A stretch of DNA of 32,000 nt from Polynucleobacter necessarius. GTDB taxonomy: Bacteria; Pseudomonadota; Gammaproteobacteria; Burkholderiales; Burkholderiaceae. Of the stretch, positions 811 through 31,659 are shown piece after piece (the first letter of the stretch is position 1; each line of letters starts with the position of its first letter). The translations under genes and the position numbers were made by a program. The notes under the pieces were generated by a model. The model was given only the letters and a program-made list of their open reading frames with translations, searched no databases and was not told the origin of the DNA. Where the stretch lies: positions 967,207 through 999,206 of the forward strand of contig NZ_LT606950.1 of NCBI RefSeq assembly GCF_900095195.1, written 5' to 3'.

Positions 811-1677
811 ATGTTTAGCTATCGACACGCCTTTCACGCCGGTAGTCATGCTGACATTCTGAAACACCTCACCTTAATTCATCTCGTCGAATACTTACAA
901 GAAAAGCCTGTTGCCCTGACGATGGTCGACACACATGCCGGAGCAGGCATTTATAGCCTGCAGGATGGATTTGCAGCTGTCAGTAAAGAGGCTGAAAACG
1001 GCATCTATCGTCTTCTCGAATTCAAAGAGGAAGGGAACGCGATCCCACCAAGCATTCAAAAATATCTTGATTGCATAGGGTCTGAAAATTCCGGAGATCT
1101 TGCAACCTACCCTGGCTCTCCCTTTATTTTGGCAAGAATGCTGCGTCCGCAAGATCGCTTGAAGTTATTTGAGCTACACCCTAAAGAGATTGATATTCTG
1201 CACCACAACATCGAGCAACTCGATTGCACCAAACAAATTGATGTGTATGCAGCCGATAGCTTTAGCAGACTCAAAGGCCTGCTACCCCCACCAAGTCGAC
1301 GGGGCCTAGTGCTCATTGACCCCTCCTATGAGGATAAACAAGACTATCGCTACTTAGAAATTACTCTTGAAGAGGCGCTGCAACGCTTTGTTACCGGCTG
1401 CTATGCCGTCTGGTACCCAATACTTTCCAGGAGGGAATCTGCTGCTTTACCGGACAGAATGAAAAAGCTCGCCGCGACTCATAAACGCTCTTGGCTTCAT
1501 GCCGAACTTCGGGTAGAAAACGCTCCGGGCGAACGACGCCTTCAAGCAAGCGGAATGTTTATTATTAATCCACCCTGGACGCTAGAAAAACATCTAGCCG
1601 AGGCGCTTCCCATTCTCACTCAAGCCTTGGCTATTAATAGTGGTGCGCAATACCTTCTGAAAAGCATGGAGGCGTAA
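811..1677 (+). CDS. rlmJ: 23S rRNA (adenine2030-N6)-methyltransferase RlmJ
   Basis: 288-aa ATG ORF. The N-terminus MFSYRHAFHAGSHADILKH is the characteristic RlmJ/YhiR signature, and the length is typical. Confidence 0.85.
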   Translation: MFSYRHAFHAGSHADILKHLTLIHLVEYLQEKPVALTMVDTHAGAGIYSLQDGFAAVSKEAENGIYRLLEFKEEGNAIPPSIQKYLDCIGSENSGDLATYPGSPFILARMLRPQDRLKLFELHPKEIDILHHNIEQLDCTKQIDVYAADSFSRLKGLLPPPSRRGLVLIDPSYEDKQDYRYLEITLEEALQRFVTGCYAVWYPILSRRESAALPDRMKKLAATHKRSWLHAELRVENAPGERRLQASGMFIINPPWTLEKHLAEALPILTQALAINSGAQYLLKSMEA

Positions 1678-1681
1678 ATGC

Positions 1682-3081
<1,400 letters not shown>

Positions 3082-3546
3082 TTACTGAGAATGAACATCA
3101 GCCCAACAATTTGGCGTTTCATATAAACGAATTGCCGAAAGTTCAAGACGTTCACCGAATGCTTTAGCAAAAACGGGTTGCAAAATCGCGAATGCAGCAT
3201 TTGCGAGATTTTCTACGGTGGGCACATGCTCTAGGATGACGGTCTTATGGTTTGGCAAACTTGCCAGAAACGCAACCAAGCCCTCATCTTCTTTAGCCAC
3301 TAAAAACGCATGGTCCCATTGATCCACAACATACTGATTGGTCAGCTTTTTGATGTCGCCAAAATCGAGCACCATGCCGTCATCCGCTTTACCAGGATGA
3401 TCCGCAACCTCACCGGTTAAAGTGACCTCAATTGCATAACGATGTCCATGGAGATGTTTGCATTGGCCGTCGCGATTTGGAATACGGTGCCCAGAGTCGA
3501 ACTCGAGGCGGCGAGTAATGGAGATTGCAGGTTATTTGCTGGTCAT
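3082..3546 (-). pseudogene. queD: 6-carboxy-5,6,7,8-tetrahydropterin synthase QueD with premature stop at codon 5 (no usable start for the conserved body)
   Basis: My translation of the minus strand from 3525 gives ISITRRLEFDSGHRIPNRDGQCKHLHGHRYAIEVTLTGEVADHPGKADDG, joining the tracked ORF at MVLDFGDIKK (3375) in one open frame. There is no ATG, GTG or TTG in that frame between 3375 and 3525. An in-frame ATG at 3546 is followed by ACC AGC AAA TAA (TAA at 3532-3534). Confidence 0.6.
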
Positions 3547-3569
3547 TTGGCGCTTTAATTATTTACTCT

Positions 3570-4225
3570 CTATCGAATACCGATCAGTTTATGCGATTGA
3601 ATGCTTAATCTCCATAACGGGCGTTTTTGGCATAGACTTACGGCTAACTCAGTATTACTTTTAAGATTGGGGCCATCCATTGGCTGCAGGAATCGATTGC
3701 GATAGTCCATCTTCTCAAATCGAGACATCAATTGCTCAACTGAATCATGACCTACTTGAGGAATGACGAGTTTCAGCTCATTTGCTTGAAACACGATTAG
3801 TTCGGATCCCGCTTTATGGCTGACACAAACCCAATCAACCCCCTTGGGGACTTTGATCGTACCGTTTGTTTCAATGGCCACCTCAAATCCTTTTTGATGG
3901 AGTGCATTGATCGGTGGCTCATCCAACTCTGTAATAGCGGCTCACCACCTGTGAAAACAACATAGCGCTGTTGGGGTCCTGCTGAGGTACTTTTTCAAGA
4001 GGCCTCGATCGCATCGGCTAAATCCCCTGCAGTCTCAAATTTGCCACCGCCAGCACCGTCACTACCAACAAAATCAGTATCGCAAAATTGGCATACTGCA
4101 GTTGCTCGATCTTCCTCGCGACCGCTCCAGAGATTGCAGCCACTAAAACGACAAAATACCGCGGCACGTCCAACATGAGCGCCTTCACCTTGCAAGGTGG
4201 GGAAAAGTTCTTTAACGGTATACAT
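3570..4225 (-). pseudogene. queE: 7-carboxy-7-deazaguanine synthase QueE (radical SAM), nonsense plus frameshift
   Basis: The N-terminal part MYTVKELFPTLQGEGAHVGRAAVFCRFSGCNLWSGRE ends at an in-frame TGA (3995-3997). The same frame continues KSTSAGPQQRYVVFTGGEPLLQ. Two surplus nucleotides at 3927-3928 then shift to the frame encoding LDEPPINALHQKGFEVAIETNGT...WRLSIQSHKLIGIR. Confidence 0.85.
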
Positions 4226-4234
4226 AGCAATACA

Positions 4235-4980
4235 CTATTTTAAGCGCATTGCTTGCTTCCAAGAAATTAGCTCCCATTGCCAATAATCCTCCCAGAAGGC
4301 ATTGGACCAAAAGACTCCAGGGGTGATGTAGCGACCACTCCCCCGCGGATAATCCAACGCCCAACCCCTGGCGAGAACCAAACATCTTCCCATCAAGAAT
4401 TTAATATTCGAAAGAGATCATTGCTAATGAAATACGGATTTTCGTTATGAAAATGTAAGGTTTGAAATTTTCCAGCCGGAGAGTCAATTTGCTCTCATCC
4501 AAGAGCAGTCATACTCAAACCCCAATAATAGCTACCGTCGGGATAGCTTGGTACTTGATATTGGGTTTTATAAAACTGGCTCCATCCTGCTTGAAGCTGC
4601 GCCGGCCACAGAGGGATTGCAGGCTGGAATTTTTGGGGAGGACTCCAGTGTGGATCTTGCAGCACAAAACCCCATGGAGATTAGATTTCATCAGGAAGCG
4701 GACCTGATTTAACTCCCGATCCAGTAATTCGGATTTCCGCCCCGACTGAAACAACTTTTTCTGTAACCGTATCAATGATTTCTTGATTGAAAACGTTGCG
4801 AACTTGGTATACCCACTCTTGACCAACGCGGGGAGCACGAACTGTTGGAGGCGACAGGGGTTGCGAAAGTTTTATTCCCTCCGGAAAGGGTTGAGAGGAA
4901 ATACATCCCGTCAGTATGACCGACAGGCTAATTGCCAATAACTTACGCAAATAATTTATTTGAATGAACTCAGCTGCCAT
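4235..4980 (-). pseudogene. Uncharacterised lipoprotein, paralog B, three in-frame stops plus one frameshift
   Basis: ATG at 4980 and signal peptide with lipobox LTGC. In-frame stops are TAA 4681-4683, TGA 4495-4497 and TGA 4393-4395. A frame change at the C5 run 4340-4344 is needed to recover the paralog-like C-terminus YWQWELISWK. It aligns along its length with paralog A (VGQEW.Y, WGFV..DP.W, PLWP, WF.P..GRW). Confidence 0.6.
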
Positions 4981-5582
4981 TGGTAACTGCCTTCGTTAAT
5001 TACCCCACCTATCTGACATTGTATTTGGTAGGGGCCTGATGTCTCGCGCGCCACCCATCTACCAATTTGCGGCGCGAACCAGATAGTTTCTTTACGAGTG
5101 CAGTTGACCTTATTGGCGTCCTCATTCTCATAGTTAATGAATGTTTGGAACTTCAGCGCAATAAATTCACCAGCGAGAACAGTAATCTTTTCCCACCCAT
5201 TAGCGCTCATATATTCTTGCTAACTCAAGAGGCCACAATGGCAATGGAGAATTAAAACTCAATAATTTTGGCCACTGTGGATCCAAGGTAACAAATCCTC
5301 AAGAGGACTGAATCTCACTTGGCAAAGCAATACCATCTTCCGAACGTTCAATCGTAATACTTGAATCCATACTGGCAACGCGCTCGCGAATCACCCCTAA
5401 TGTTTTCCCGCTGAACACATCTTTCTTAATATAGGTCCACTCTTGGCCAACTTGAGGAGCCCGAGCCTTAGGCAAGGGATTGGGTTGAGCAACTGGAGTA
5501 CCTTGCTCATACCCAAGGGGACACCACAGGCAACTGGTGCTAGAGCAGCCGATACGATAAAGGTTCGACGCGTTATATTCAT
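4956..5582 (-). pseudogene. Uncharacterised lipoprotein, paralog A, two frame changes plus one nonsense codon
   Basis: ATG at 5582 preceded by GGGAGG (5587-5592); signal peptide MNITRRTFIVSAALAPVAC. The frame changes shortly after the lipobox (about 5500-5530) to PLPKARAPQVGQEWTYIKKDVFSG. There is an in-frame TGA at 5299-5301. The frame changes again around 5205-5225, with about 20 codons missing relative to paralog B, before ANGWEKITVLAGEF...YQWQLSSFK. Confidence 0.6.
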
Positions 5583-5611
5583 ATAACCTCCCGAATTAAG
5601 CTTTGACTGGA

Positions 5612-6401
5612 TCAATATACCTCAAGCAGATACAACTCTTCATCGGTAAATCCGGCCTGTCTACGAGCAGCCAAATTGAATGGGGCCCGTAACTTTGGAG
5701 CTCGATATTGCCTAACGAGTTCACGGTACGCTGTAATTGGCGATAGATGATTTTTTGTGCATAAGAAATTAAACCAATGATTGCCGATCGCAACATGGCC
5801 AATCTCATCGCGCAGAATAATCTCTAATATTTCTACAGCGGCAATATCTTTTACTTGCTTAAAACGATCGCGAATTGCTGGAACTGCGTCCAACCCTCTC
5901 GCCTCCATTGTTCTGGGCACCAAATCCATTCTGGCAATTACAGAGTCAACCGTTCTCTCTACCATTTCCCATAAACTGTTATGCGCATCAAAATCACCAT
6001 AAGAAAAACCATGGGATTGAAGATAGCCACTCACAAGACTGAAGTAATATGCCTCTTCTTTGGAAACCTGGAGCCAGTCCTCATAATATTACTCGGGCAT
6101 ATCTGGAAAGCGCCAAATCGCATCTAGAGCAAGGTTGATGGCATTAAATTCGATATGAGCAAGCGAGTGCAGTAACGAAGCTCGTGTCCATCTTTCTTCT
6201 TGGAACATCCAGAGGTGGCACCAGTATTGGCTTTTCTGGGCGCCCAGGGAGGCAATGATTTTGAGTAGCTAGAGCCTGAGTACGATTTACGCGAATGCTC
6301 CCTTGATGGTATGCGTCAAATAACTCAAAGACTTGGCTGACCTTAGCTGCAGGTTCAGTAAGCGCTAAAATCTCTAAGGCGGCTTCGCGTAGCTCGGTCA
6401 T
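5612..6401 (-). pseudogene. DUF455 ferritin-like family protein, frameshift plus nonsense
   Basis: The N-terminal ORF (6144-6401) leaves the family frame around 6175-6200. The alternative frame reads RASLLHSLAHIEFNAINLALDAIWRFPDMPE, then TAA (6089-6091), then YYEDWLQVSKEEAYYFSLVSGYLQSHGF, joining ORF 5612-6034 (RDEIGHVAIGNHWF). Confidence 0.7.
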
Positions 6402-6419
6402 TAAAAAAGGTGCGGGGAA

Positions 6420-8027
6420 TTATTCCCACTCAATCGTTGCTGGAGGTTTGCCGCTAATGTCGTAGACAACGCGATTAATGCCACGGACTTCATTGATGAT
6501 GCGGTTCGATACTTTACCAAGTAACTCATGGGGTAAATGAGCCCAATGTGCAGTCATGAAATCCTGAGTTTGCACTGCTCTAAGTGCAATAACATACTCA
6601 TAGGTTCTACCATCGCCCATGACGCCAACGGATTTCACTGGCAAGAATACAGCGAATGCCTGACTAGTCAGGTCATACCAAGACTTCTGACTTACCTCAT
6701 CAATGGTGTTGCGCAACTCTTCAATAAAAATAGCATCGGCTCGATGTAGGAGATTTGCAAATTCAGCTTTCACCTCACCTAAAATGCGCACGCCCAGACC
6801 AGGACCTGGGAATGGGTGGCGATACACCATCTCGCGAGGCAAGCCTAATGCGACGCCAAGCTCACGTACCTCATCTTTGAATAATTCACGCAATGGCTCA
6901 AGCAACTTGAGATGCATATCTTCAGGCAGGCCACCAACATTATGATGACTCTTGATTGCGCGCGCGCCCTTCTTGCCTTTACCAGCAGACTCAATCACAT
7001 CTGGATAAATCGTTCCCTGCGCTAACCACTTTGCATTTTTAATCTTGCCAGATTCAGCCTGAAAAATCTCAACAAACTCTTTACCAATAATCTTGCGCTT
7101 TGCTTCAGGATCGGCAACGCCAGCCAATTTACTCATGAAGACATCTTTAGCATCGACCCGAATCACCCTGACACCCAGATTACGCGCAAACATTTCCATC
7201 ACCATATCGCCTTCATTCAAGCGAAGTAAGCCATGGTCAACAAATACACACGTTAACTGATCGCCAATCGCACGATGAATCAGGGCTGCAGCAACGCTAG
7301 AGTCCACACCACCGGATAAACCGAAGATGACTTCTTCATTACCAACTTGTTTACGAATATTCTCAACGGCTTCAGCAATGTAGTCGCCCATCACCCAATC
7401 CGGCTTGCATTGGCAAATCTCATGAACAAAACGCTCAAGAATTGTGGTGCCTTGAATCGTATGGGTTACTTCCGGATGAAATTGAAAAGCATAAAAACGG
7501 CGCTCCTCATCTGCCATACCCGCAATCGGACACGATTCTGTAGAAGCCATTAACTTGAATGAGGGTGGCATGGCCGTTACAGAATCTCCATGGCTCATCC
7601 ACACTTTCAGAATGCCATGGCCCTCACTGGTCGAGAAGTCCTGAATCCTTTTAAGCAAATTCGTGTGGCCATGAGCACGCACTTCCGAGTAACCAAATTC
7701 GCGTGCCTGACCCAAGGATTCCGCTGAAGCAACAGCACCACCCAATTGGGTTGCCATCGTTTGCATACCATAGCAAATGCCCAATACGGGAACACCTAAT
7801 TCAAATACAATTTGTGGGGCACGTGGACTACCCGCTTCTGTGACAGAACTGGGACCACCAGAGAGAATAATCCCTTTACCGCCTTGCTCTTGAATGAATT
7901 GACGGATGAATTCCGGATCACAGTCATAGGGATGTATTTCAGAATACACCCGCGCATCACGAACGCGTCTAGCAATTAATTGGGTTACCTGTGAACCAAA
8001 GTCGAGAATCAGTATTTTGTCGTGCAC
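6420..8027 (-). CDS. guaA: GMP synthase (glutamine-hydrolysing)
   Basis: 535-aa ORF starting [13 protein letters not shown], with a GATase domain, the PP-loop SGGVDSS and C-terminal IEWE. The start codon is GTG at 8027. Confidence 0.95.
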
Positions 8028-8082
8028 GAAACGGTCAATCTAAATTTCAGTATTTACTTTTGATGTAGCTCTTGTTGAAGTC

Positions 8083-9911
<1,829 letters not shown>

Positions 9912-9922
<11 letters not shown>

Positions 9923-10346
9923 ATAACTTTTCTGCGCGTTTCACAAAACAATCCACAAACGTACCTGCAATGTGCCCAAACACTGGACCAATGATCTTAT
10001 CCAAGATGACGCTCTTGAATTCCCAATGCAATTTAAATTCCACTTTGCAGACATCTTCGCGCAAGGGAATAAAATTCCATTGGCCAGAAAAATGTTTGAA
10101 GGGTCCATCCACAAAAACCATATCGATCGTTTCTGGACGATGGTTGATATTACGCGTATGAAAAAATTGATTAATACCCTTAAAGCTAATCTTGATTTTG
10201 GCATCCAAAACCGTTTCAGTTTGCTCGAAAATCTCCACACCACCACACCATGGCAAAAACTCTGAATAACGTGCTACATCCGTCACTAAACCGTACATTC
10301 GGTCGGCGGATTGACTAATTAATACAGTCTTATAGACGTCTGCCAT
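9912..10346 (-). CDS. ratA: SRPBCC-family protein RatA (ribosome association toxin / CoQ-binding COQ10-like)
   Basis: 144-aa ATG ORF with YSEFLPWC near the N-terminus. It lies divergent from smpB, as in many proteobacteria. Confidence 0.75.
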
Positions 10347-10371
10347 AATCGATCTTGGAAGCTAAATAAAT

Positions 10372-10824
10372 ATGAGTATCGTCGATAACAAAAAAGCCTT
10401 CTTTGATTATTTTATCGAGGAGCGCTTTGAGGCGGGATTGGTTCTGGAGGGCTGGGAAGTCAAAGCTATCCGTGCTGGTCGCGTGCACATTAAAGAAGCG
10501 TATGTTGTCATACGCAAGGCGGAGCTTTTCCTGATCAGATGCCATATTACCCCCCTACTTTCCGCCTCTACTCACATTGCTCCTGACAGTGTTCGAACCC
10601 GCAAACTGCTTCTCAATGCCATTGAGGTTCGCACGCTGATTGGTAAAGTGGAACAAAAAGGCTACACCCTAGTCCCATTGAATCTGCATTTCTCCAAGGG
10701 AAATGTGAAATGCGAAATTAGTCTAGCTCGTGGCAAGAAACAGCATGACAAGCGCGCTGCCACCAAAGAGCGTGAATGGGAAGTGCAGAAGGGTCGTATC
10801 GCTCGAGGCGACCTGAACGCCTAA
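10372..10824 (+). CDS. smpB: SsrA-binding protein SmpB
   Basis: 150-aa ATG ORF with [25 protein letters not shown] and a basic C-terminal tail; full length. Confidence 0.95.
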
Positions 10825-10937
10825 TCCGCTTCAGTCAGTTTCTTCATAGGCTGTATTGCACCTTTATGGTGCATAACGGCACCAATCTGCTTCAACTCCC
10901 AATTTCAGGAGAACAGAAAGGCTTTAGTTTTATCCAT

Positions 10938-12349
10938 ATGAAACTGCCTTTTGATGAAATGCTAGACGCCGCAGGCAAAGCGCGTCCCAACTACGAAATT
11001 TTTCATACCTGGTTAAAGCAGCAAAGCGATACCCTCATGGGTCTCAAACGGGCTGAAGCAGACCTCATTTTCCGACGAGTGGGCATTACATTCGCGGTCT
11101 ACGGCGATGATCTTGGCTCAGAGCGAACCATACCGTTTGACCAGGTTCCGCGCATCTTTACTACGAAAGAGTGGGCACAACTCGAAGCAGGATTGCGTCA
11201 ACGCGTCAAAGCACTCAATCGCTTTATTTATGACGTGTATCACGAAGAAGAAATCATCAAAGCAGGAATTGTTCCGGCCGAGCAAATTTTTAACAATGTG
11301 CAATATCACCCAGAGATGCGTAACGTTAATGTGCCTCGAGATATCTACGCACAAATTGCAGGGATTGATACTGTGCGAGCAGGCGAAGGTGAGTTTTATG
11401 TCTTAGAGGATAACCTGCGCGTTCCTTCCGGCGTTTCTTACATGGTCGAGGACCGCAAGATGATGATGCGCCTTTTCCAGGACCTCTTTCAAAAATACCG
11501 CGTCGCCACCGTAGAGCACTATCCAGATTTACTACTGGAGTGTCTCAAGTCCGTTAAGCCCGACGATGTTAAGAAACCAAATGTCGTGGTTCTCACACCC
11601 GGCATGTATAACTCCGCATATTTTGAGCACAGCTACCTTGCTAAGCAAATGGGTGTGGAGTTAGTAGGGGGTAAGGACTTGTTTGTCAAAAATGAGCAAG
11701 TCTTTATGCGAACCACTCAGGGCCCAGAACGCGTGGATGTCATCTATCGGCGCGTTGATGATGATTTTTTAGACCCGCTCGCATTTCGCTCAGACTCAAC
11801 TTTAGGTGTAGCAGGGCTCTTAGCAGCACATCGAGCTGGAAATGTAACTTTGGCTAACGCGATTGGTACCGGCATTGCCGATGACAAATCAATCTATCCC
11901 TATGTTCCTGAGATGTTGAGTTTTATCTCGGCGAAAAACCGATCCTTAATAACGTTCCCACCTTCCAATGTCGCAAGCCAGAGGATTTGGCATGCACACT
12001 AGCGAATCTTGAAAAACTGGTTGTTAAATTGACGCATGGTGCTGGCGGATACGGCATGCTAGTCGGCCCCACTTCCACCAAAGCTAAAGTTGAAGAATTT
12101 AGAGTGCACCTCATTGCCAATCCTGATAAGTACATAGCCCAACCCACTTTAGTGCTATCCACCTGCCCTACCTTTGTGGAGTCGGGGATTGCGCCACGCC
12201 ATATTGATTTGCGTCCCTTTGTTCTCTCCGGAAAAACCATCAAGATGGTTCCCGGCGGCCTCACACGAGTTGCTCTTAAAGAGGGTTCGCTAGTGGTGAA
12301 CTCCTCGCAGGGTGGCTGCACAAAAGACACCTGGGTTCTCGAAGCGTAA
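10938..12349 (+). pseudogene. Circularly permuted ATP-grasp type 2 protein (COG2308), single frameshift
   Basis: ATG at 10938 after AGGAG. The frame is good through IADDKSIYPYVPEM, then a 1-nt loss around 11915-11921. The continuation FYLGEKPILNNVPTFQCRKPEDLACTLANLEKLVVK...HGAGGYGMLVG...VVNSSQGG.TKDTWVL is in another frame (tracked ORF 11987-12349). Confidence 0.8.
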
Positions 12350-12363
12350 GAGGAATAAGAAAA

Positions 12364-13119
12364 ATGTTAAGCCGCACTGCCGATTGTCTCTACTGGATGG
12401 CTCGCTACACAGAACGCGCAGAAAATACTGCTCGCATGTTAGTGTCAATCACCAAACCTCGCTCTTACCTCAACCCTCTGACGTCTTAGAGCAAAGTTGG
12501 AAAAAACTGTTGACCATCTCAAAATTAGAGGGCGCATTCTTAAGCAAATATGATGTGATTAATTGTGAAAATGTGTTGGATTTGATGATTTATGAAACGA
12601 GCAATCCGTCCAGCATTGTTTCCTGCCTTTATGCAGCCCGTGAGAATGCCAGAGTGATGCCAGAGTGATTCGTGGAAAGATTACCTCCGAAGTCTGGGAG
12701 ACTCAAAATACAACTTGGCTGGAATTGCAACGCATTTTGCAGACCCGCCACCAATCAGACCAAAGCTGATTGCTTGAGTGGGTGAAGCGCCGTTGCCATT
12801 TATTCCGGGGCGTGATGTACGGAACCATGCTGAAAAATGAATCTTTCTACTTTATTAATGTCGGAACACTACTAGAGCGCGCCGACAACACTGCTCGTAT
12901 CTTGCAGACCTTATTCCATTGGTTTCCGAAGTTAAAAACCAACAATCCAAGGAAATTGAGCGCTTACTCGGAAAACTCAAGGCGAACTTAGATTACTCAG
13001 ACATCGATGAAGTCTTTGCGCAGGGTCTGGAGGAATATATTGAAAACTTCCTTGAGCGCATCAACCATATCGCAGATGAAGTCAGTAGCGCCTACCTGAT
13101 TCCATTGGCAGTAGCATAA
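12364..13119 (+). pseudogene. Alpha-E domain protein (DUF403), multiple lesions
   Basis: ATG at 12364 (MLSRTADCLYWMARYTERAENTAR). Lesions: a 1-nt loss near 12442, an 11-bp tandem duplication at 12648-12669, an in-frame TGA at 12767-12769, and a further frame change near 12900-12960. The total span is only 252 codons, so the middle of the protein appears deleted. The C-terminus LGKLKANLDYSDIDEVF...YLIPLAVA is retained. Confidence 0.75.
12648..12669 (+). repeat. Perfect 11-bp tandem duplication GCCAGAGTGAT x2 inside the alpha-E gene
   Basis: Read directly: 12648-12658 equals 12659-12669. Removing one copy restores ENARVIRGKITSEVWETQNTTWLE in frame. Confidence 0.9.
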
Positions 13120-13135
13120 AAACCGAAAAGAAGAT

Positions 13136-13934
13136 ATGCATTTAAAGATCCGCCATCGCACCGAGTATCGCTACGAAACTCCAGTGCGCTATTCCATTCA
13201 AGAATTGCGCTTGACGCCACCCAGTTACAGCAGGGCAAGACATTGAGCGCTGGAAAATTAGCACCCCAATTAAAGCAAGCAATTCGATTGATACTTTTAA
13301 CAACGTGTGCAGCGTTTTTGTGCAAGAGGCCTCCTACACCTCAATGATGATTGAGGCAGAGGGAGAAGTAATCACGCAGGATGCTTATGAGTACATAGAC
13401 GATGCTAAAGCGGTATCGCCCTATTTTTTACTTCAGCAAACTCATCTAACAGAACCCTCTGAGGCGATGTTGGAATATTTTGCGGATTCGCTACAAAAAA
13501 AGAATTCAATCAATGCCATTTTGAAACTTGCCTCAGCAGTTCAACAATCCATTGAATATGCGCCGGGACAAACAAACTTTGCCACAACTGCTGCTCAGTC
13601 ATTTGCTATGAAATCGGGTGTTTGCCAAGATCATGCCCACATCATGTTGAGCCTATGTAGAGCCACACAAATACCAGCACGGTATGTCAGCGGATACTTC
13701 TTTGCAGAAGAATCCCCCAATCTAGTGAGTCATGCATGGATTGATTTTTGCAGTGATATCGAAAAAGGGGTTTGGGTTAGCGTTGATATTACTCATGCAT
13801 GTTTAATTGACGCGCGGCACATTCGCCTTGCCATCGGTCGCGACTACTACTCTGCGGCGCCTGTCAAAGGTGTGCGTACTAGCGGTGGCGGCGAAGAATT
13901 GACAGCGAATATCTCGATTCAACAGCTTGCCTAG
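13136..13934 (+). pseudogene. Transglutaminase-like cysteine protease family protein, single frameshift
   Basis: ATG at 13136 (MHLKIRHRTEYRYETPVRYSIQELRLTPPS) runs into TGA at 13244-13246. The family sequence continues in another frame from about 13230 (AGQDIERWKISTPIK...DTFNNVCSVF) into tracked ORF 13305-13934, which has the catalytic Cys motif GVCQDHAH and SHAWIDF. Confidence 0.8.
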
Positions 13935-14035
13935 AGCCCTAGGCACCCCCCTCTGGTAGCCCATGGAATATTTCAGGGATAATCTCAGGCAATGATTGCA
14001 TCAGAAGCATAGAAAGCACTTAAGGATTAGGTTAT

Positions 14036-14859
14036 ATGACGTATTGCGTTGGGCTTTGCCTAAAAGATGGTATCGTATTTTTATCGGATACCCGCACGAA
14101 TGCTGGAGTAGACCAAATTGGTACCTTCAGAAAAATGACCTTATTTCAAAAGGACAAAGATCGTTTTTTTGCTTTAATGAGTGCCGGCAACCTGGCTATT
14201 ACTCAGTCCGTTAAGGAAATCCTGTTGCAGGGTCAATCCATCAACGGCAAGAATCTGTGGACCGCTAAAAACTCCTATGAAGCCGCCGTTGTTGTTGGTG
14301 ATGCTATTAAGCAAGTTTACGAACGCGATCATGAGGCTTTAACTAAGGCAGGGCTAGATTTCAATTGCAACATGATTTTGGTGGCCAAGTCAAAGGCGAA
14401 AAACCTCGCCTGTTTAATATTTATTCAGCCGGTAACTTTATTGAAGCTACTCCTGAGACGTGTTACTTCCAAATCGGCGAATCCAAATATGGAAAACCGA
14501 TTCTCGACCGAGTATTAAATTTCTCGACCCCATTAAATTTGGCTACCAAGTGCGTCTTAATCTCCATGGGCTCTACTCTTAAGAGTAATATTTCTGTAGG
14601 GGCTCCACTGGATATGGTGATTTATGAAAAGGATGCGTTAAAGGCCTCTAAGCTTGTCACACTACTTGATGAAGAGAACCCCTACTTTGCCATGATTCAT
14701 CGTCTTTGGGGCGAGAAATTGCGCGAGGCGTTTAACTCTATTGCCGAACCCAGTTGGAGTGGAGCCAATAAGTCTGCTGCCATCTCCATGCCTGCTAAGA
14801 AAATGGGTGGCGTTCCCATTAATCGCCCACCTGTCGCAAAGCAAGCAAATCGCCGATGA
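14036..14859 (+). pseudogene. Proteasome-type protease (COG3484), single frameshift
   Basis: The N-terminus MTYCVGLCLKDGIVFLSDTRTNAG is good through LDFNCNMIL. One G is missing at about 14379-14381 (TTGGTGG where TTGGGTGG is expected). The continuation GGQVKGEKPRLFNIYSAGNFIEATPE is in tracked ORF 14365-14859. Confidence 0.75.
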
Positions 14860-14896
14860 CTAAGGCAAGCAAGCCGGTTAAAAAGATAGCGGCCAA

Positions 14897-14928
14897 GAAA
14901 AAGCCTAGGTTGCTTTCTAGGCTTTTTG
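14897..14928. terminator. Bidirectional rho-independent terminator between convergent genes
   Basis: The sequence AAAAAGCCTAG-gttgcttt-CTAGGCTTTTT forms a perfect stem flanked by an A-run and a T-run. It sits between the + strand protease pseudogene and the - strand ppsA. Confidence 0.6.
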
Positions 14929-14962
14929 TTACAGCTGAACTGCAGGGAATTGATACTGTAAG

Positions 14963-17367
14963 TTAGGCGTTTAAGTTTTTGCCCAGCATTTCCCAAGTCT
15001 CAACCACGCTATCAGGATTGAGGGATATTGAAGTAACGCCCTTCTCTACCAACCAACGCGCGAAGTCTGGATGATCTGAAGGCCCCTGACCGCAAATACC
15101 AACGTATTTATTTTGTTTGCGACATGCTTCTATTGAGCGAGCAATCATAAATTCAACTGCTGGATCACGATCATCAAAGTCGATCGCAAGCAACTCCATG
15201 CCCAAGTCACGATCTAGGCCCAGCGTGAGCTGTGTCATATCGTTCGAGCCAATCGAGAAGCCATCGAAATACTCTAGGAACTGGTCTGCCAAAATTGCAT
15301 TTGATGGAATTTCGCACATCATGATGAGGCGCAAGCCATTCACACCGCGCTTGAGACCAAACTTCTCCATCATGGCGATCACGCGCTGAGCCTGAGGAAT
15401 GGTCCGCACAAAAGGCACCATGATCTCGACATTATCTAAGCCCATGTCTTCGCGAACCCGCTTCATTGCAGAACACTCTAATGCGAAAGCTTCACCAAAT
15501 TCTTCCGAAATATAGCGCGAAGCACCGCGGAAGCCCAACATTGGATTTTCTTCATCGGGCTCATAGCGTGAACCATCGATCAACTTCTTATATTCATTCG
15601 ATTTGAAGTCTGATAGACGGACAATGACTGCCTTTGGATAAAAGGCGGCCGCAATAGTAGCAACACCTTCCACCAATTTATCCTCATAAAACTGACGTGG
15701 GCTTGCATAACCACGAGCCACACTTTCTACTGCCCGCTTCAAGTCAGGGTCAATGTTTGGATACTCCAGAACTGCGCGTGGATGAACACCAATGTAATTG
15801 TTAATGATAAATTCCAAGCGAGCCAATCCAACGCCCGCATTTGGGATTTGGCAAAAATCAAAAGCCAACTGCGGATTACCAATATTCATGGTGATCTTGA
15901 CTGGAATCTCAGGTAATACACCACGAGACACCTCGGTTACTTCGGTTTCAATCAAGCCGTCGTAGATATGGCCTTCATCACCCTCAGCACACGAGACTGT
16001 CACCACCATACCGTCTTGCAACTGTTCTGTAGCATCGCCACAACCCACTACGGCTGGCACACCCAATTCCCGAGCAATAATCGCCGCATGACAGGTACGA
16101 CCCCCCGGTTAGTCACAATCGCCGAAGCGCGCTTCATAACAGGCTCCCAGTTCGGGTCCGTCATCTCCGCAACCAACACATCCCCAGGCCGAACCCGATC
16201 CATCTCGCTCGGATCACGAATGATACGAACTGGACCAGCGCCAATCTTTTGACCAATCGCACGGCCTTTTGCTAGAACCTTTGAGCCACCTTTTAACTTG
16301 TAGCGCATCTCCACCTGACCAGCCGCCTGACTCTTTACGGTCTCAGGGCGAGCCTGGAGGATATAAATACGACCATCTTGACCATCTTTACCCCACTCGA
16401 TGTCCATTGGACGGCCATAGTGTTTTTCAATGATGACCGCATATTTGGCTAACTCAGCTATGTCGGCATCTTTTAATGAGAAACGATTACGTTTCTCAGG
16501 AGATACATCCACAGTTTGCACTTTCTCAGCAGATCCTTTGGGTGCAAATTGCATTTGAATTAACTTAGAGCCAAGCGCACGACGAATGATAGCTTTTTTG
16601 CCTTGGGCTAAAGTGGTCTTGAATACATAAAACTCATCAGGGTTCACGGCTCCTTGCACTACCGTCTCGCCCAATCCATAGCTCGACGTAATGAAAACCA
16701 CATCTTCAAATCCAGATTCAGTATCCAGAGTGAACATCACACCAGCAGCGCCCAAATCAGAACGCACCATCCGCTGAATACCAGCAGAAAGTGCTAATTC
16801 AGCATGGGCAAAGCCTTTATGAACACGATACGAAATGGCTCGATCGTTATACAAAGAAGCAAATACTTCACGAATTTTCTTTAAAACGTCTTCAATACCT
16901 TCAACATTCAGAAAAGTCTCTTGTTGACCAGCAAAAGAGGCGTCTGGGAGATCCTCTGCAGTAGCAGATGAACGTACCGCAAAAGATCCTTTGCCGGAAT
17001 CGTCCAACGTTGCAAATGCTTTGCGAATCTCTTCCTCAAGTCTCGGTTGAAATGGAGCAGTTTCAATCCAATTGCGAATCTCGGCGCCCGCCTCCGCTAG
17101 AGCACGCACATCATCAATATTGAGACCTTCTAAACGTTGTTGAATGCGTTCAGTCAAATTGTTATGCTTTAAGAAATCCCGAAAGGCTAATGCGGTGGTA
17201 GCAAAACCTGTTGGCACGCGAACCCCAGTAGAGGCCAACTAGGAAATCATCTCGCCTAAAGATGCATTTTTACCGCCGACAGATTCCACATCTGTCATGC
17301 GAAGTTGCTCAAAAGGCAATACATAGGCATTTGCCACACTGCTGCTTTGTTGCTGTTGATTGGGCAT
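14963..17367 (-). pseudogene. ppsA: Phosphoenolpyruvate synthase, nonsense plus homopolymer frameshift
   Basis: ATG at 17367 ([42 protein letters not shown]), then an in-frame TAG at 17239-17241, then [16 protein letters not shown]. At the C6 run 16101-16106 (G6 on the coding strand) one G is missing, so TNRG is followed by VVPVMRR... and a stop instead of [22 protein letters not shown]. The correct continuation is tracked ORF 14963-16066. Confidence 0.9.
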
Positions 17368-17473
17368 AAAATACTCTCTAAAGATAAGGAAACTGGTATT
17401 GCGGTCGCCCAAAATGCGACTTCATTTAATATGATCCTATTGTATTGCTGACCCCCTCTTTTAGGCCAAACTG

Positions 17474-18301
17474 ATGTCCACCGAATCCCGCATTGTTTTT
17501 ATCGTCTCAGACGGTACTGGCATTACCGCTGAGAACTTTAGCCAGTCGATTTTGGCGCAATTTGAGGCCAGTTTTAAGCACATCCGCATTCCCTTTGTGG
17601 ATAGCTTCGATAAGGCCCATGATGCCGTTAAGAGCATTAATCAAGCGGCAAGCAAGTATGACTACAGCCAATCGTTTTCACTACTCTGGTGAATTTTGAG
17701 CTCAATTCGATCGTAGCCAAAGCAAATGGTCTGATCTTGGACATGTTCCAAACGTTCGTCACTCCTCTTGAAGAAGCCTTGGGCATGAAATCAACCCATG
17801 CCATGAACCGTCTGCACCACAACGCTGATACCGAAGCCTATAAAAACCGTATCGAAGCGATTAACTACTCCCTCGCCCATGATGATGGGCAGTCGAATCA
17901 AAACCTGGCTGAAGCCGATGTCATTTTGGTGGGCATCTCACGTGTCGGCAAAACGCCAACAAGTTTGTACTTGGCCATGGCAATATGGTCTGAAGGCTGC
18001 AAACTACCCCCTCATTCCAGAGGATTTTGAACGTGGTCAACTCCCTAAGGACTTAATTCCATTTCGCCAAAAAATCTTTGGCCTCATGATTGATGCGGAG
18101 CGTTTATCCGAAATTCGAAATGAACGCTGGCCAGGGAGTAATTACGCCAAACTCGAGAACTGTCGTTATGAAATTAATGAAGCGACGGCGATGATGAAAA
18201 AACAGTCGATTCCTTGGGTACTGACGACTAGCAAATCGATTGAAGAAATCGCTACAACAGTTTTACAAGCCATCAAATCCGATAAAACGATCTTAGGCTA
18301 G
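17474..18301 (+). pseudogene. ppsR: PEP synthase regulatory protein (bifunctional kinase/pyrophosphorylase, DUF299), two frameshifts
   Basis: The sequence occupies three frames. MSTESRIVFIVSDGTGITAENF... changes frame around 17655-17667. [14 protein letters not shown]...[17 protein letters not shown] changes frame through an extra G at 17979/17980. The last segment is [19 protein letters not shown]...SIEEIATTVLQAI. Its TAG stop (18299-18301) overlaps the convergent neighbour's stop in a CTAG. Confidence 0.85.
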
Positions 18302-19146
18302 CCACTATTAAATTGGCTGACCCAGGCGCGACGTACGCGCACCGTCTCAAATAGGCAAATGGCTGCTGCAGTAGAGACATTTAAAGACTCTACCCGCGGA
18401 TCAATTGGTATCGACACCCCTTTGGCCTGCGCCAAAATATCTTCGGATACTCCCTGCCCCTCACTACCCATTACCCAGGCAATTGGATTTTGCAGTTCAT
18501 CACTTAATGAGTAGAGATCGCATTCTGCATCTGCAGTGGCTGCCAGCATAGGGGCAGTAACAGCACTCAACAGCTGTTGAGTAGACCACCCCTCATAAAG
18601 ATCTAGGAGACGATGCGCCCCCATGCCCGCGCGCAATACCTTCCCTGACCACAAATGCGCACAACCAGAAAGAGCTAACATTTGAGTAAAACCTGCCGCT
18701 GCAGCAGTTCGCAAGATAGAGCCTATGTTTCCAGCGTCTTGAATACGATCCAAGATCAGCAGATCACCATTAAGCGTAGAAATGGATTGTGGCGCAGTAA
18801 GACTGGAAGGCGGCAATGTCAGAAGACCCGCAATGTGTGGAGCATTGACCAAGTCACTCAGCAAATCCCATAAAGCAGGATCAAGTTGAAATACCTTGGT
18901 ATCAGGACAGTACTCAAGATGCTCGTAAGCAACCTGAGAAATTTCGGGATTTCGCAGACCAACCTCTGAAGTAATCAAGGTTTTCAGCGCCGGGTCACCC
19001 ACCCAGGTTTGAATCAGATGAATTCCCTCTAACAAGGTATGCCCGCCGGCAAGGCGCGCTTTCTGACCTTTTGCGCCAGTAGCTTGCAAGAGTCGAATTT
19101 CCTTGATTAAAAGATTCTCTTTTGAGGTAATGAGATCAAAGTTCAT
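18298..19146 (-). CDS. TrmH/SpoU-family RNA 2'-O-methyltransferase
   Basis: 282-aa ATG ORF with SpoU motifs DRIQDAGNIGSILRTAAAAG, WVMGSEGQGV and IPI...ESLNVSTAAAICLFE. Confidence 0.8.
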   Translation of the reverse strand: MNFDLITSKENLLIKEIRLLQATGAKGQKARLAGGHTLLEGIHLIQTWVGDPALKTLITSEVGLRNPEISQVAYEHLEYCPDTKVFQLDPALWDLLSDLVNAPHIAGLLTLPPSSLTAPQSISTLNGDLLILDRIQDAGNIGSILRTAAAAGFTQMLALSGCAHLWSGKVLRAGMGAHRLLDLYEGWSTQQLLSAVTAPMLAATADAECDLYSLSDELQNPIAWVMGSEGQGVSEDILAQAKGVSIPIDPRVESLNVSTAAAICLFETVRVRRAWVSQFNSG

Positions 19147-19149
19147 AGC

Positions 19150-19731
19150 TTATTTCGCAGCTGACTCGAGAACCTTGCGCACCGGTGAAAAACTTCTGCG
19201 ATGTTGATCGTAAGCGCCATATTGCTTTAAGGCTGCCAAGTGTGCTTCAGTAGGATGGCCCATTTGCTGAGCAAAACCGTATTCAGGATGACGCTCATGC
19301 AGAATTTGCACGCGTAACCTTAGCCAGAATGGACGCTGCTGAGATAGCTGGCTCCTTTGCATCGCCCTTCACGATAGCTTCGGCGGCAATAGGTAGTTCT
19401 GGGCAACGATTGCCATCGATTAATACCTTATCGGGCATTGCACCTAAACGTGTTGATAAATCCTCTACGGCACGACGCATTGCTAACATGGTTGCCTGCA
19501 AAATATTGATTGCATCAATCTCCGATGAACTAGCCTCACCAATTCCCCAGGCCTTCGCCTTTTCAATGATCTGCTCATACAAAAATTCGCGCTTGGCAGG
19601 CGTTAATTTCTTAGAATCTTTCAGACCCTCAATTGGCTGGTTTGGATCAAGAACTACCGCCCCCGCTACTACAGAACCGACAAGGGACCACGCCCGGCCT
19701 CATCCACGCCACAAATCCAAATAATGCTCAT
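19150..19731 (-). pseudogene. rnhB: Ribonuclease HII, two frame-disrupting lesions
   Basis: ATG at 19731, in an ATGA overlap with the lpxB stop. [17 protein letters not shown] is followed by a 1-nt loss at about 19678-19681 and stops TAG TAG at 19666-19671. The frame-shifted continuation is [39 protein letters not shown]...[10 protein letters not shown] short out-of-frame deletion around 19305-19318 comes before [20 protein letters not shown]. The usual HKGY motif reads QMGH. Confidence 0.85.
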
Positions 19732-31617: not shown

Positions 31618-31659
31618 CAGGTGCTATACGCATCTCGGGGACTTGCCCCAAAACGCTAA

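Follow-up and report, generated by a model that had tools for sequence, protein, structure and literature searches.

The question raised by this stretch of a Polynucleobacter necessarius chromosome is whether its many interrupted reading frames are dead genes and, if so, which stage of genome decay they represent. The stretch (contig NZ_LT606950.1, positions 967,207 to 999,206, 32,000 nucleotides, called the window in its full length) had been described in an earlier note, made from the letters alone, as a region where 12 of about 35 genes are near-full-length pseudogenes with about 26 lesions between them. The decay was read there as early reductive evolution, tentatively in the lineage of ciliate endosymbionts. 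Our analysis leads to the same view: the window very probably comes from the chromosome of P. necessarius, an obligate endosymbiont of Euplotes, and shows an early stage of reductive genome evolution. The 12 genes are intact in free-living relatives, many of their lesions recur in a second strain, they evolve neutrally and their DNA is being deleted in that second strain. The phenomenon as such is already known, as pseudogene-rich P. necessarius genomes and parallel reduction have been published. Boscaro et al. (2013, PNAS 110:18590) reportedly described the genome decay of P. necessarius STIR1, and Boscaro et al. (2017, Nat Ecol Evol 1:1160) are said to have treated the parallel genome reduction of independently acquired Polynucleobacter symbionts.

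The broken genes were identified with protein-guided codon alignments, in which the window DNA was added to 8-11 free-living orthologs per gene and read in the ancestral frame. The reference loci were syntenic regions of free-living Polynucleobacter, obtained by scanning a genome collection for SmpB and looking up a member of an SmpB cluster, and they are 79-83% identical to the window at the nucleotide level. The alignments returned 12 broken genes among 35 (Table 1), with 25-27 disabling lesions, close to the number given before. Nonsense codons account for 9-10 of them and frameshifting indels for 16-17, with 1-4 lesions per gene. Among the indels are 1-bp and 2-bp changes and a tandem duplication of 11 bp, besides two 11-bp deletions and one each of 71 and 232 bp. 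In the free-living loci L007 and L081-L090, all 12 suspect genes were intact open reading frames (ORFs) wherever they were present. A break of ppsR in L082 was only apparent and was due to a scaffold gap of Ns. The other 23 genes of the window were without any lesion and matched their own families end to end, so that the neighbouring genes are indeed intact.

Table 1. Broken genes of the window, followed by two intact features lying between them. Positions count from the first nucleotide of the window; strain B is introduced in the text.
Feature	Position	Strand	Ortholog length in relatives	Lesions in the window	Comparison with strain B
queD (6-carboxytetrahydropterin synthase) pseudogene	3082..3546	(-)	154-161 aa, PTPS proteins	1 lesion: CAA>TAA, codon 5 (3534)	
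queE (radical-SAM 7-carboxy-7-deazaguanine synthase) pseudogene	3570..4225	(-)	217 aa	TGG>TGA, codon 77 (3997); 2-bp insertion (3930)	
246-aa lipoprotein pseudogene	4253..4980	(-)	246 aa	stops 4683, 4497, 4395; 1-bp deletion 4340; ancestral stop codon gone	common: TGA 4395, 1-bp deletion 4340; private to window strain: TGA 4497
233-aa lipoprotein (paralogous) pseudogene	4956..5582	(-)	233 aa	1-bp deletion 5521; 71-bp deletion 5229; TGA 5301; 3-bp in-frame deletion 5341	common: 1-bp deletion 5521, TGA 5301, 3-bp deletion 5341
DUF455 pseudogene	5612..6401	(-)	266 aa	11-bp deletion 6184; CAA>TAA 6091	common: 11-bp deletion 6184; private to window strain: TAA 6091 (strain B: CAA)
Circularly permuted ATP-grasp pseudogene, operon gene 1/4	10938..12349	(+)	470 aa, Pfam CP_ATPgrasp_1/2	single 1-bp deletion, codon 327 (11915)	
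alpha-E domain pseudogene	12364..13119	(+)	325 aa	1-bp deletion 12442; 11-bp tandem duplication, ATGCCAGAGTG x2, 12646-12667; TGA 12767; 232-bp deletion after 12909	
Transglutaminase-like pseudogene	13136..13934	(+)	265 aa	one 1-bp insertion, codon 30 (13224)	
Proteasome-type (Ntn-hydrolase-like) pseudogene	14036..14859	(+)	294 aa	1-bp deletion, codon 114 (14376)	
ppsA (phosphoenolpyruvate synthase) pseudogene	14963..17367	(-)	798-801 aa	CAG>TAG, codon 43 (17241); 1-bp deletion, codon 421 (16106)	common: TAG 17241, 1-bp deletion 16106
ppsR (PEP synthase regulatory kinase/phosphorylase) pseudogene	17474..18301	(+)	275 aa	1-bp deletion 17659; 1-bp insertion 17979	common: 1-bp insertion 17979; private to window strain: 1-bp deletion 17659
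rnhB (RNase HII) pseudogene	19150..19731	(-)	197 aa	1-bp deletion 19682; 11-bp deletion 19311	common: 11-bp deletion 19311; private to window strain: 1-bp deletion 19682
Intact island guaA, guaB, rnfH, ratA, smpB, inside the decayed region	6420..10824			no lesion in any gene	
SpoU-family RNA methyltransferase gene, intact, between ppsR and rnhB	18298..19146	(-)			

Near-full length was verified as well, with 10,872 of 11,265 bp (96.5%) of the ancestral sequence retained by the 12 broken genes. Their homology covers 77-100% of the ortholog length at 66-82% nucleotide identity, the fast-evolving lipoprotein genes excepted. The ancestral ATG is present in all 12, and 10 of the 12 still end at the ancestral stop codon. 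Three junctions are the same as in the free-living loci: lpxB and rnhB overlap by ATGA, the two lipoprotein genes share 25 nt, and tadA abuts queD. The ribosome-binding sites, which had been counted among the retained signals together with the start codons and overlaps, were borne out weakly, since a Shine-Dalgarno-like motif was recognisable in only 4-5 of the 12.

The lesions are not scattered over the window. When 27 lesions are placed at random on 35 genes, 17.9 genes are expected to be hit, and 12 or fewer are hit with a probability of 0.0015. Among the 12 genes the lesion density did not differ significantly (P = 0.10), and staggered inactivation times are not claimed. A single lesion was found in the ATP-grasp, transglutaminase and queD genes, and 2-4 in each of the other nine. 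In queD the next in-frame start is codon 58. The nonsense changes in the lipoprotein genes include TGG>TGA. Deletions prevail in the window lineage, with 13-15 of them removing about 390 bp and 4-5 insertions adding about 18 bp. A further TAG at 5222 in the 233-aa lipoprotein gene is uncertain owing to poor alignment, and so is a shortened C-terminal tail of the proteasome-type protein, which is poorly conserved and poorly aligned there. An exact search of metagenome contigs with the junction of the 11-bp duplication gave no match.

Interrupted frames of this kind could be sequencing or assembly errors, for instance homopolymer miscalls, in genes that are really intact. Runs of at least 4 identical bases contain or adjoin about 3-4 of the 11 single-base indels, and artefacts do occur: the metagenome-assembled genome L006 (JBGAIU010000008.1), which is of the free-living type, has a 1-bp insertion in the essential guaB gene. 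L006 (7710-9174, 11996-12685) also has a stop in the alpha-E gene and 2 bp inserted into a G-run within a lipoprotein gene; all three are probably assembly errors, and L006 was not used as a control. Broken ORFs by themselves are thus no proof of pseudogenes.

An independent view came from a second strain. A protein search with RseP gave a 99%-identical protein, which led to the contigs of strain B, a lineage present in the European Nucleotide Archive assembly ERZ27248707 and in the Logan assemblies SRR32119647 and SRR8208349. The contigs are 99.97-100% identical to one another and 98.7% identical to the window. Positions 1263-32000 of the window were compared with the strain B loci L171, L173 and L174. 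The DNA of 14 window lesions is still present in strain B, and 10 of these lesions, in six genes, were found there as well (Table 1). Since strain B was assembled independently, sequencing error is ruled out for these 10. Stop substitutions, the 11-bp duplication and the longer deletions are also untypical of read errors. About 20 kb of adjacent intact genes are lesion-free, too few genes are affected for a random process, and the lesions cluster by functional module. Taken together, these results make the error explanation scarcely credible.

The lesions shared by both strains are older than their split, whereas the four that are private to the window strain are younger. The ancestral Trp codon TGG at 4495-4497 of the 246-aa lipoprotein gene has become TGA in the window strain but TAG in strain B, through two independent G-to-A changes after the death of the gene.

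A gene with an interrupted frame might still work as a split gene, by programmed frameshifting or by readthrough of the stop. The retention of all 12 start codons and of most operon overlaps, and the single lesion in three genes, would fit such a function. The comparison of the two strains argues against it, as the broken genes evolve without purifying selection. Of the 30 small indels that separate the two strains, 26 are in pseudogenes, 4 are intergenic and none lies in the 20.2 kb of intact genes (P = 2e-18). The substitution divergence is 1.75% in the pseudogenes and 0.82% in the intact genes (p = 2e-9), a 2.1-fold difference, and the pseudogene value equals the synonymous divergence (pS) of the intact genes. 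Read in the ancestral frame, the pseudogenes have a nonsynonymous divergence (pN) 2.3 times that of the intact genes (p = 3e-6). Polarised substitutions in the pseudogenes comprise 60 GC-to-AT and 24 AT-to-GC changes. Such changes between strains that are 98.7% identical are those of loci under no constraint. In addition, nine genes combine 2-4 lesions of mixed type, including the 71- and 232-bp deletions, and in a second symbiont genome (LT615227.1, see below) the lesion sites differ, so that no conserved recoding site exists. Finally, strain B has deleted several of these loci altogether. That the interrupted genes are still functional is therefore extremely improbable.

The 22 intact genes had a pN/pS of 0.315 (pS = 0.0175), which is high for bacterial housekeeping genes. 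Such a value would fit weakened purifying selection, or deleterious changes awaiting purging, in the symbiont.

Strain B also shows what follows inactivation. Relative to the window it has lost 733, 685, 237, 2934, 26 and 32 bp, 4.6 kb in total, and every one of these deletions is inside pseudogenes. They removed all of queE, the 3' half of the ATP-grasp gene, all of the alpha-E and transglutaminase genes and most of the proteasome-type gene. Deletion follows inactivation with a lag, as had been proposed from the window alone, where the genes are still nearly complete.

The time of inactivation was estimated in two ways. A dN/dS analysis of the broken genes against free-living relatives was not usable because the synonymous sites are saturated (pS 0.66-0.89), and the comparison with strain B was used instead. 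On the window branch, dN relative to the reference branches was 0.9-1.9 times for the broken genes and 1.2-2.5 times for the intact genes, so that the broken genes show no excess. Their neutral phase was too short to register against the free-living relatives. With 96.5% of the length retained, this shows that the genes were inactivated recently, in line with the earlier reading. From the count of stops in the ancestral frame, 10 in about 3,600 codons, a neutral divergence of roughly 1.5-2% since inactivation can be estimated. The inactivation would then be a few times as old as the divergence of the two strains, in keeping with the finding that most testable lesions are common to both.

The identity of the bacterium was examined with proteins of the window. 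RnfH is 100% identical to WP_114662698.1 and RseP to WP_114662719.1, both from P. necessarius (taxid 576610), and the next-best matches in 5.8 billion proteins were 86% identical for RnfH and 82% for RseP. A scan of 241 million metagenome records gave no RnfH above 80% identity. Exact-sequence searches with GuaA, SmpB and LpxA of the window had no match, apparently because the gene calls of this genome are missing from the index searched. The attribution of the window to a Polynucleobacter endosymbiont holds, as judged from protein identity; for the intracellular life in Euplotes itself the evidence is indirect.

The genome LT615227.1 (GCA_900096755.1) also belongs to P. necessarius, yet it shares only 80% identity with the window and is no closer to it than free-living strains are. 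In this genome ppsA, ppsR and the ATP-grasp, alpha-E, queD and 246-aa lipoprotein genes are broken, at other codons than in the window. A radical-SAM gene that is absent from the window is a pseudogene there. The queE, 233-aa lipoprotein, transglutaminase and proteasome-type genes are intact, and rnhB is seemingly intact in the part that is visible. The different lesions in the same six genes of an unrelated symbiont indicate that the same functions were lost independently. Independent parallel loss in Polynucleobacter symbionts has been reported in reviews (PMC9539572, PMC11253213).

These data also bear on the explanation that the losses reflect ordinary turnover of accessory genes in free-living Polynucleobacter, unrelated to host restriction. 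The radical-SAM gene, a SOUL-domain gene and the ATP-grasp operon are each missing from some free-living loci, as turnover would predict. Against this stand the protein identity to P. necessarius and the absence of any break in the 12 genes of L007 and L081-L090. The losses moreover extend to housekeeping genes (rnhB, ppsA, queD and queE), the pN/pS of the retained genes points to weakened purifying selection, and the same genes are broken in LT615227.1. We consider accessory-gene turnover very unlikely as the general cause.

Several observations weigh against the decay of a host-restricted genome as an explanation for every gene. Part of the gene set varies among free-living strains, the ATP-grasp operon being absent from L088, and the loss of some of the 12 genes need not be specific to symbiosis. 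The pN/pS of the pseudogenes between the two strains was 0.44 and not 1; this differs from the 0.315 of the intact genes in the right direction, but with the small counts the difference is not significant (Fisher p = 0.16). In the three genes with a single lesion (ATP-grasp, transglutaminase and queD), the truncated product could formally retain some function. Thirteen lesions of the window have no cross-check, as their DNA is deleted in strain B; they are those in queD, queE and the ATP-grasp, alpha-E, transglutaminase and proteasome-type genes, and two in the lipoprotein genes.

With these reservations, the reading of the window as an endosymbiont chromosome in early reduction leads to the following scheme. 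Within the host, purifying selection would no longer act on the de novo synthesis of the queuosine precursor (queD, queE), on phosphoenolpyruvate (PEP) synthase and its regulator (ppsA, ppsR), on the accessory ATP-grasp/alpha-E/transglutaminase/proteasome-type operon, to which no function is assigned, or on the two lipoproteins, DUF455 and RNase HII. Each gene would first be disabled by one change, a nonsense substitution or a small indel. Neutral drift would then add more stops and indels, with a bias to GC-to-AT changes and to deletions, until kilobase-scale deletions begin to clear the remains. The losses follow functional modules (queD with queE, ppsA with ppsR, the four-gene operon), an indication that entire pathways had become dispensable. 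Host restriction with relaxed selection would be the cause, and functions supplied by the host would have made each gene dispensable. The lesions, their inheritance, the neutral decay of the broken genes, the erosion of this DNA in strain B and the convergent loss in an unrelated symbiont were observed directly, and the role of the host is inferred from them.

The two strains have not changed to the same extent. Polarised substitutions on the strain B and window branches numbered 63 and 29 in the pseudogenes and 24 and 12 in the intact genes, about a twofold difference. Since the split, small indels have arisen about 26 times in the pseudogenes of strain B, which also underwent six deletions (26-2,934 bp), an inversion of 92 bp and an inverted transposition of 25 bp. 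The pseudogenes of the window strain acquired about 2 indels and 2 nonsense codons, and the private small indels of strain B are about 10 times as many. The pair might thus give a time-resolved view of pseudogene erosion, with lineages decaying at very different speeds through a lineage-specific jump in the rate of indels and rearrangements. We put this forward as a tentative idea that is more probably wrong than right. The jump may come, for example, from a repair or replication-fidelity function lost in one symbiont line. The decay asymmetry between near-identical strains is one element that has possibly not been described before.

The inversion is an exact one of about 92 bp in the ATP-grasp pseudogene (window 11306-11399, L173 8526-8617) and was also seen in SRR8208349 (L175). 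At the 5' end of ppsA, 25 bp are gone from 17316-17340 in strain B, and their reverse complement is inserted at 17226, 90 bp away, with the DNA between unchanged; this looks like a template switch or a double inversion. Since the window is collinear with the free-living relatives at both sites, the inversion and the transposition are derived in strain B. At 10903, in the smpB/ATP-grasp spacer upstream of the dead operon, 8 bp are tandemly duplicated in strain B (TTCAGGAG x2). In the pyrH-tsf spacer, the window and strain B differ by 1 bp and 2 bp in length at 31619 and 31653.

The window resembles the published symbiont STIR1, which bears the same species name and has hundreds of point-mutated pseudogenes, no proliferation of insertion sequences and free-living relatives of about 2 Mb; locally, the window shows the same. 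For STIR1, 1,279 coding genes and 231-460 pseudogenes were reported, without proliferation of mobile elements (PMC4285135), and a 'large number of pseudogenes' is noted where the species is described (PMC5018217). The pseudogene density of the window, 34% (12/35), is higher than the published genome-wide density of about 15-26%. Repair functions were reported to be lost in the P. necessarius symbiont, and the loss of rnhB fits this report (PMC4285135). The parallel reduction known from Polynucleobacter has its counterpart here in LT615227.1, an unrelated lineage in which the six shared genes are broken by other lesions. Near-full-length pseudogenes, deletion and GC-to-AT bias, elevated dN/dS and a lag of deletion are features shared with Sodalis, Serratia symbiotica and Mycobacterium leprae. 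Unlike these, the window has no expansion of insertion sequences and shows point mutations and small indels only, a contrast also made in PMC4285135.

The window is a clean and locally dense case of the first reductive step, inactivation before deletion, with very close free-living relatives, and its value is confirmatory. A reader with the sequence only was able to recognise the decay signature correctly. The comparisons add the order of events and the rough age, and they show that ppsA/ppsR, queD and the ATP-grasp operon were lost convergently in a second symbiont.

The 35 genes and pseudogenes fill the whole window, which has a G+C content of about 46-48% and a largest intergenic gap of 160 bp. 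The order starts with PAP2, rlmJ, ldcA and tadA, followed by queD, queE, the two paralogous lipoprotein genes and DUF455. Then come guaA, guaB, rnfH, ratA and smpB and the ATP-grasp/alpha-E/transglutaminase/proteasome-type operon, and next ppsA, ppsR, the SpoU methyltransferase gene and rnhB. The end is formed by lpxB, lpxA, fabZ, lpxD, skp, bamA, rseP, dxr, cdsA, uppS, frr, pyrH and the partial tsf. Neither RNA genes nor riboswitches of the window were detected by Rfam and tRNA scans, and no transposase or mobile element was found, all of the sequence being accounted for by the 35 genes and pseudogenes.

RseP, with 375 aa short in comparison with models based on E. coli, was considered as a further broken gene and rejected, because 375 aa is the native length across Polynucleobacter. 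Many relatives have a gene for a 630-aa B12-binding radical-SAM protein between the lipoprotein genes and DUF455 (window 5582-5612), and in some a SOUL-domain gene adjoins ldcA (window 1677-1682). The loci compared for this content were L081-L087, L088 and L177. Both genes are absent from the window without a remnant and absent also from some free-living strains; with this distribution they may equally have been lost or never have been present. The longest ORF at 8083-9666 overstates guaB, whose true start is the ATG at 9546. The 408-aa ORF from 10776 (10776-12002) is a frame artefact that runs from the interior of smpB into the ATP-grasp pseudogene, the ancestral ATG of which is at 10938.

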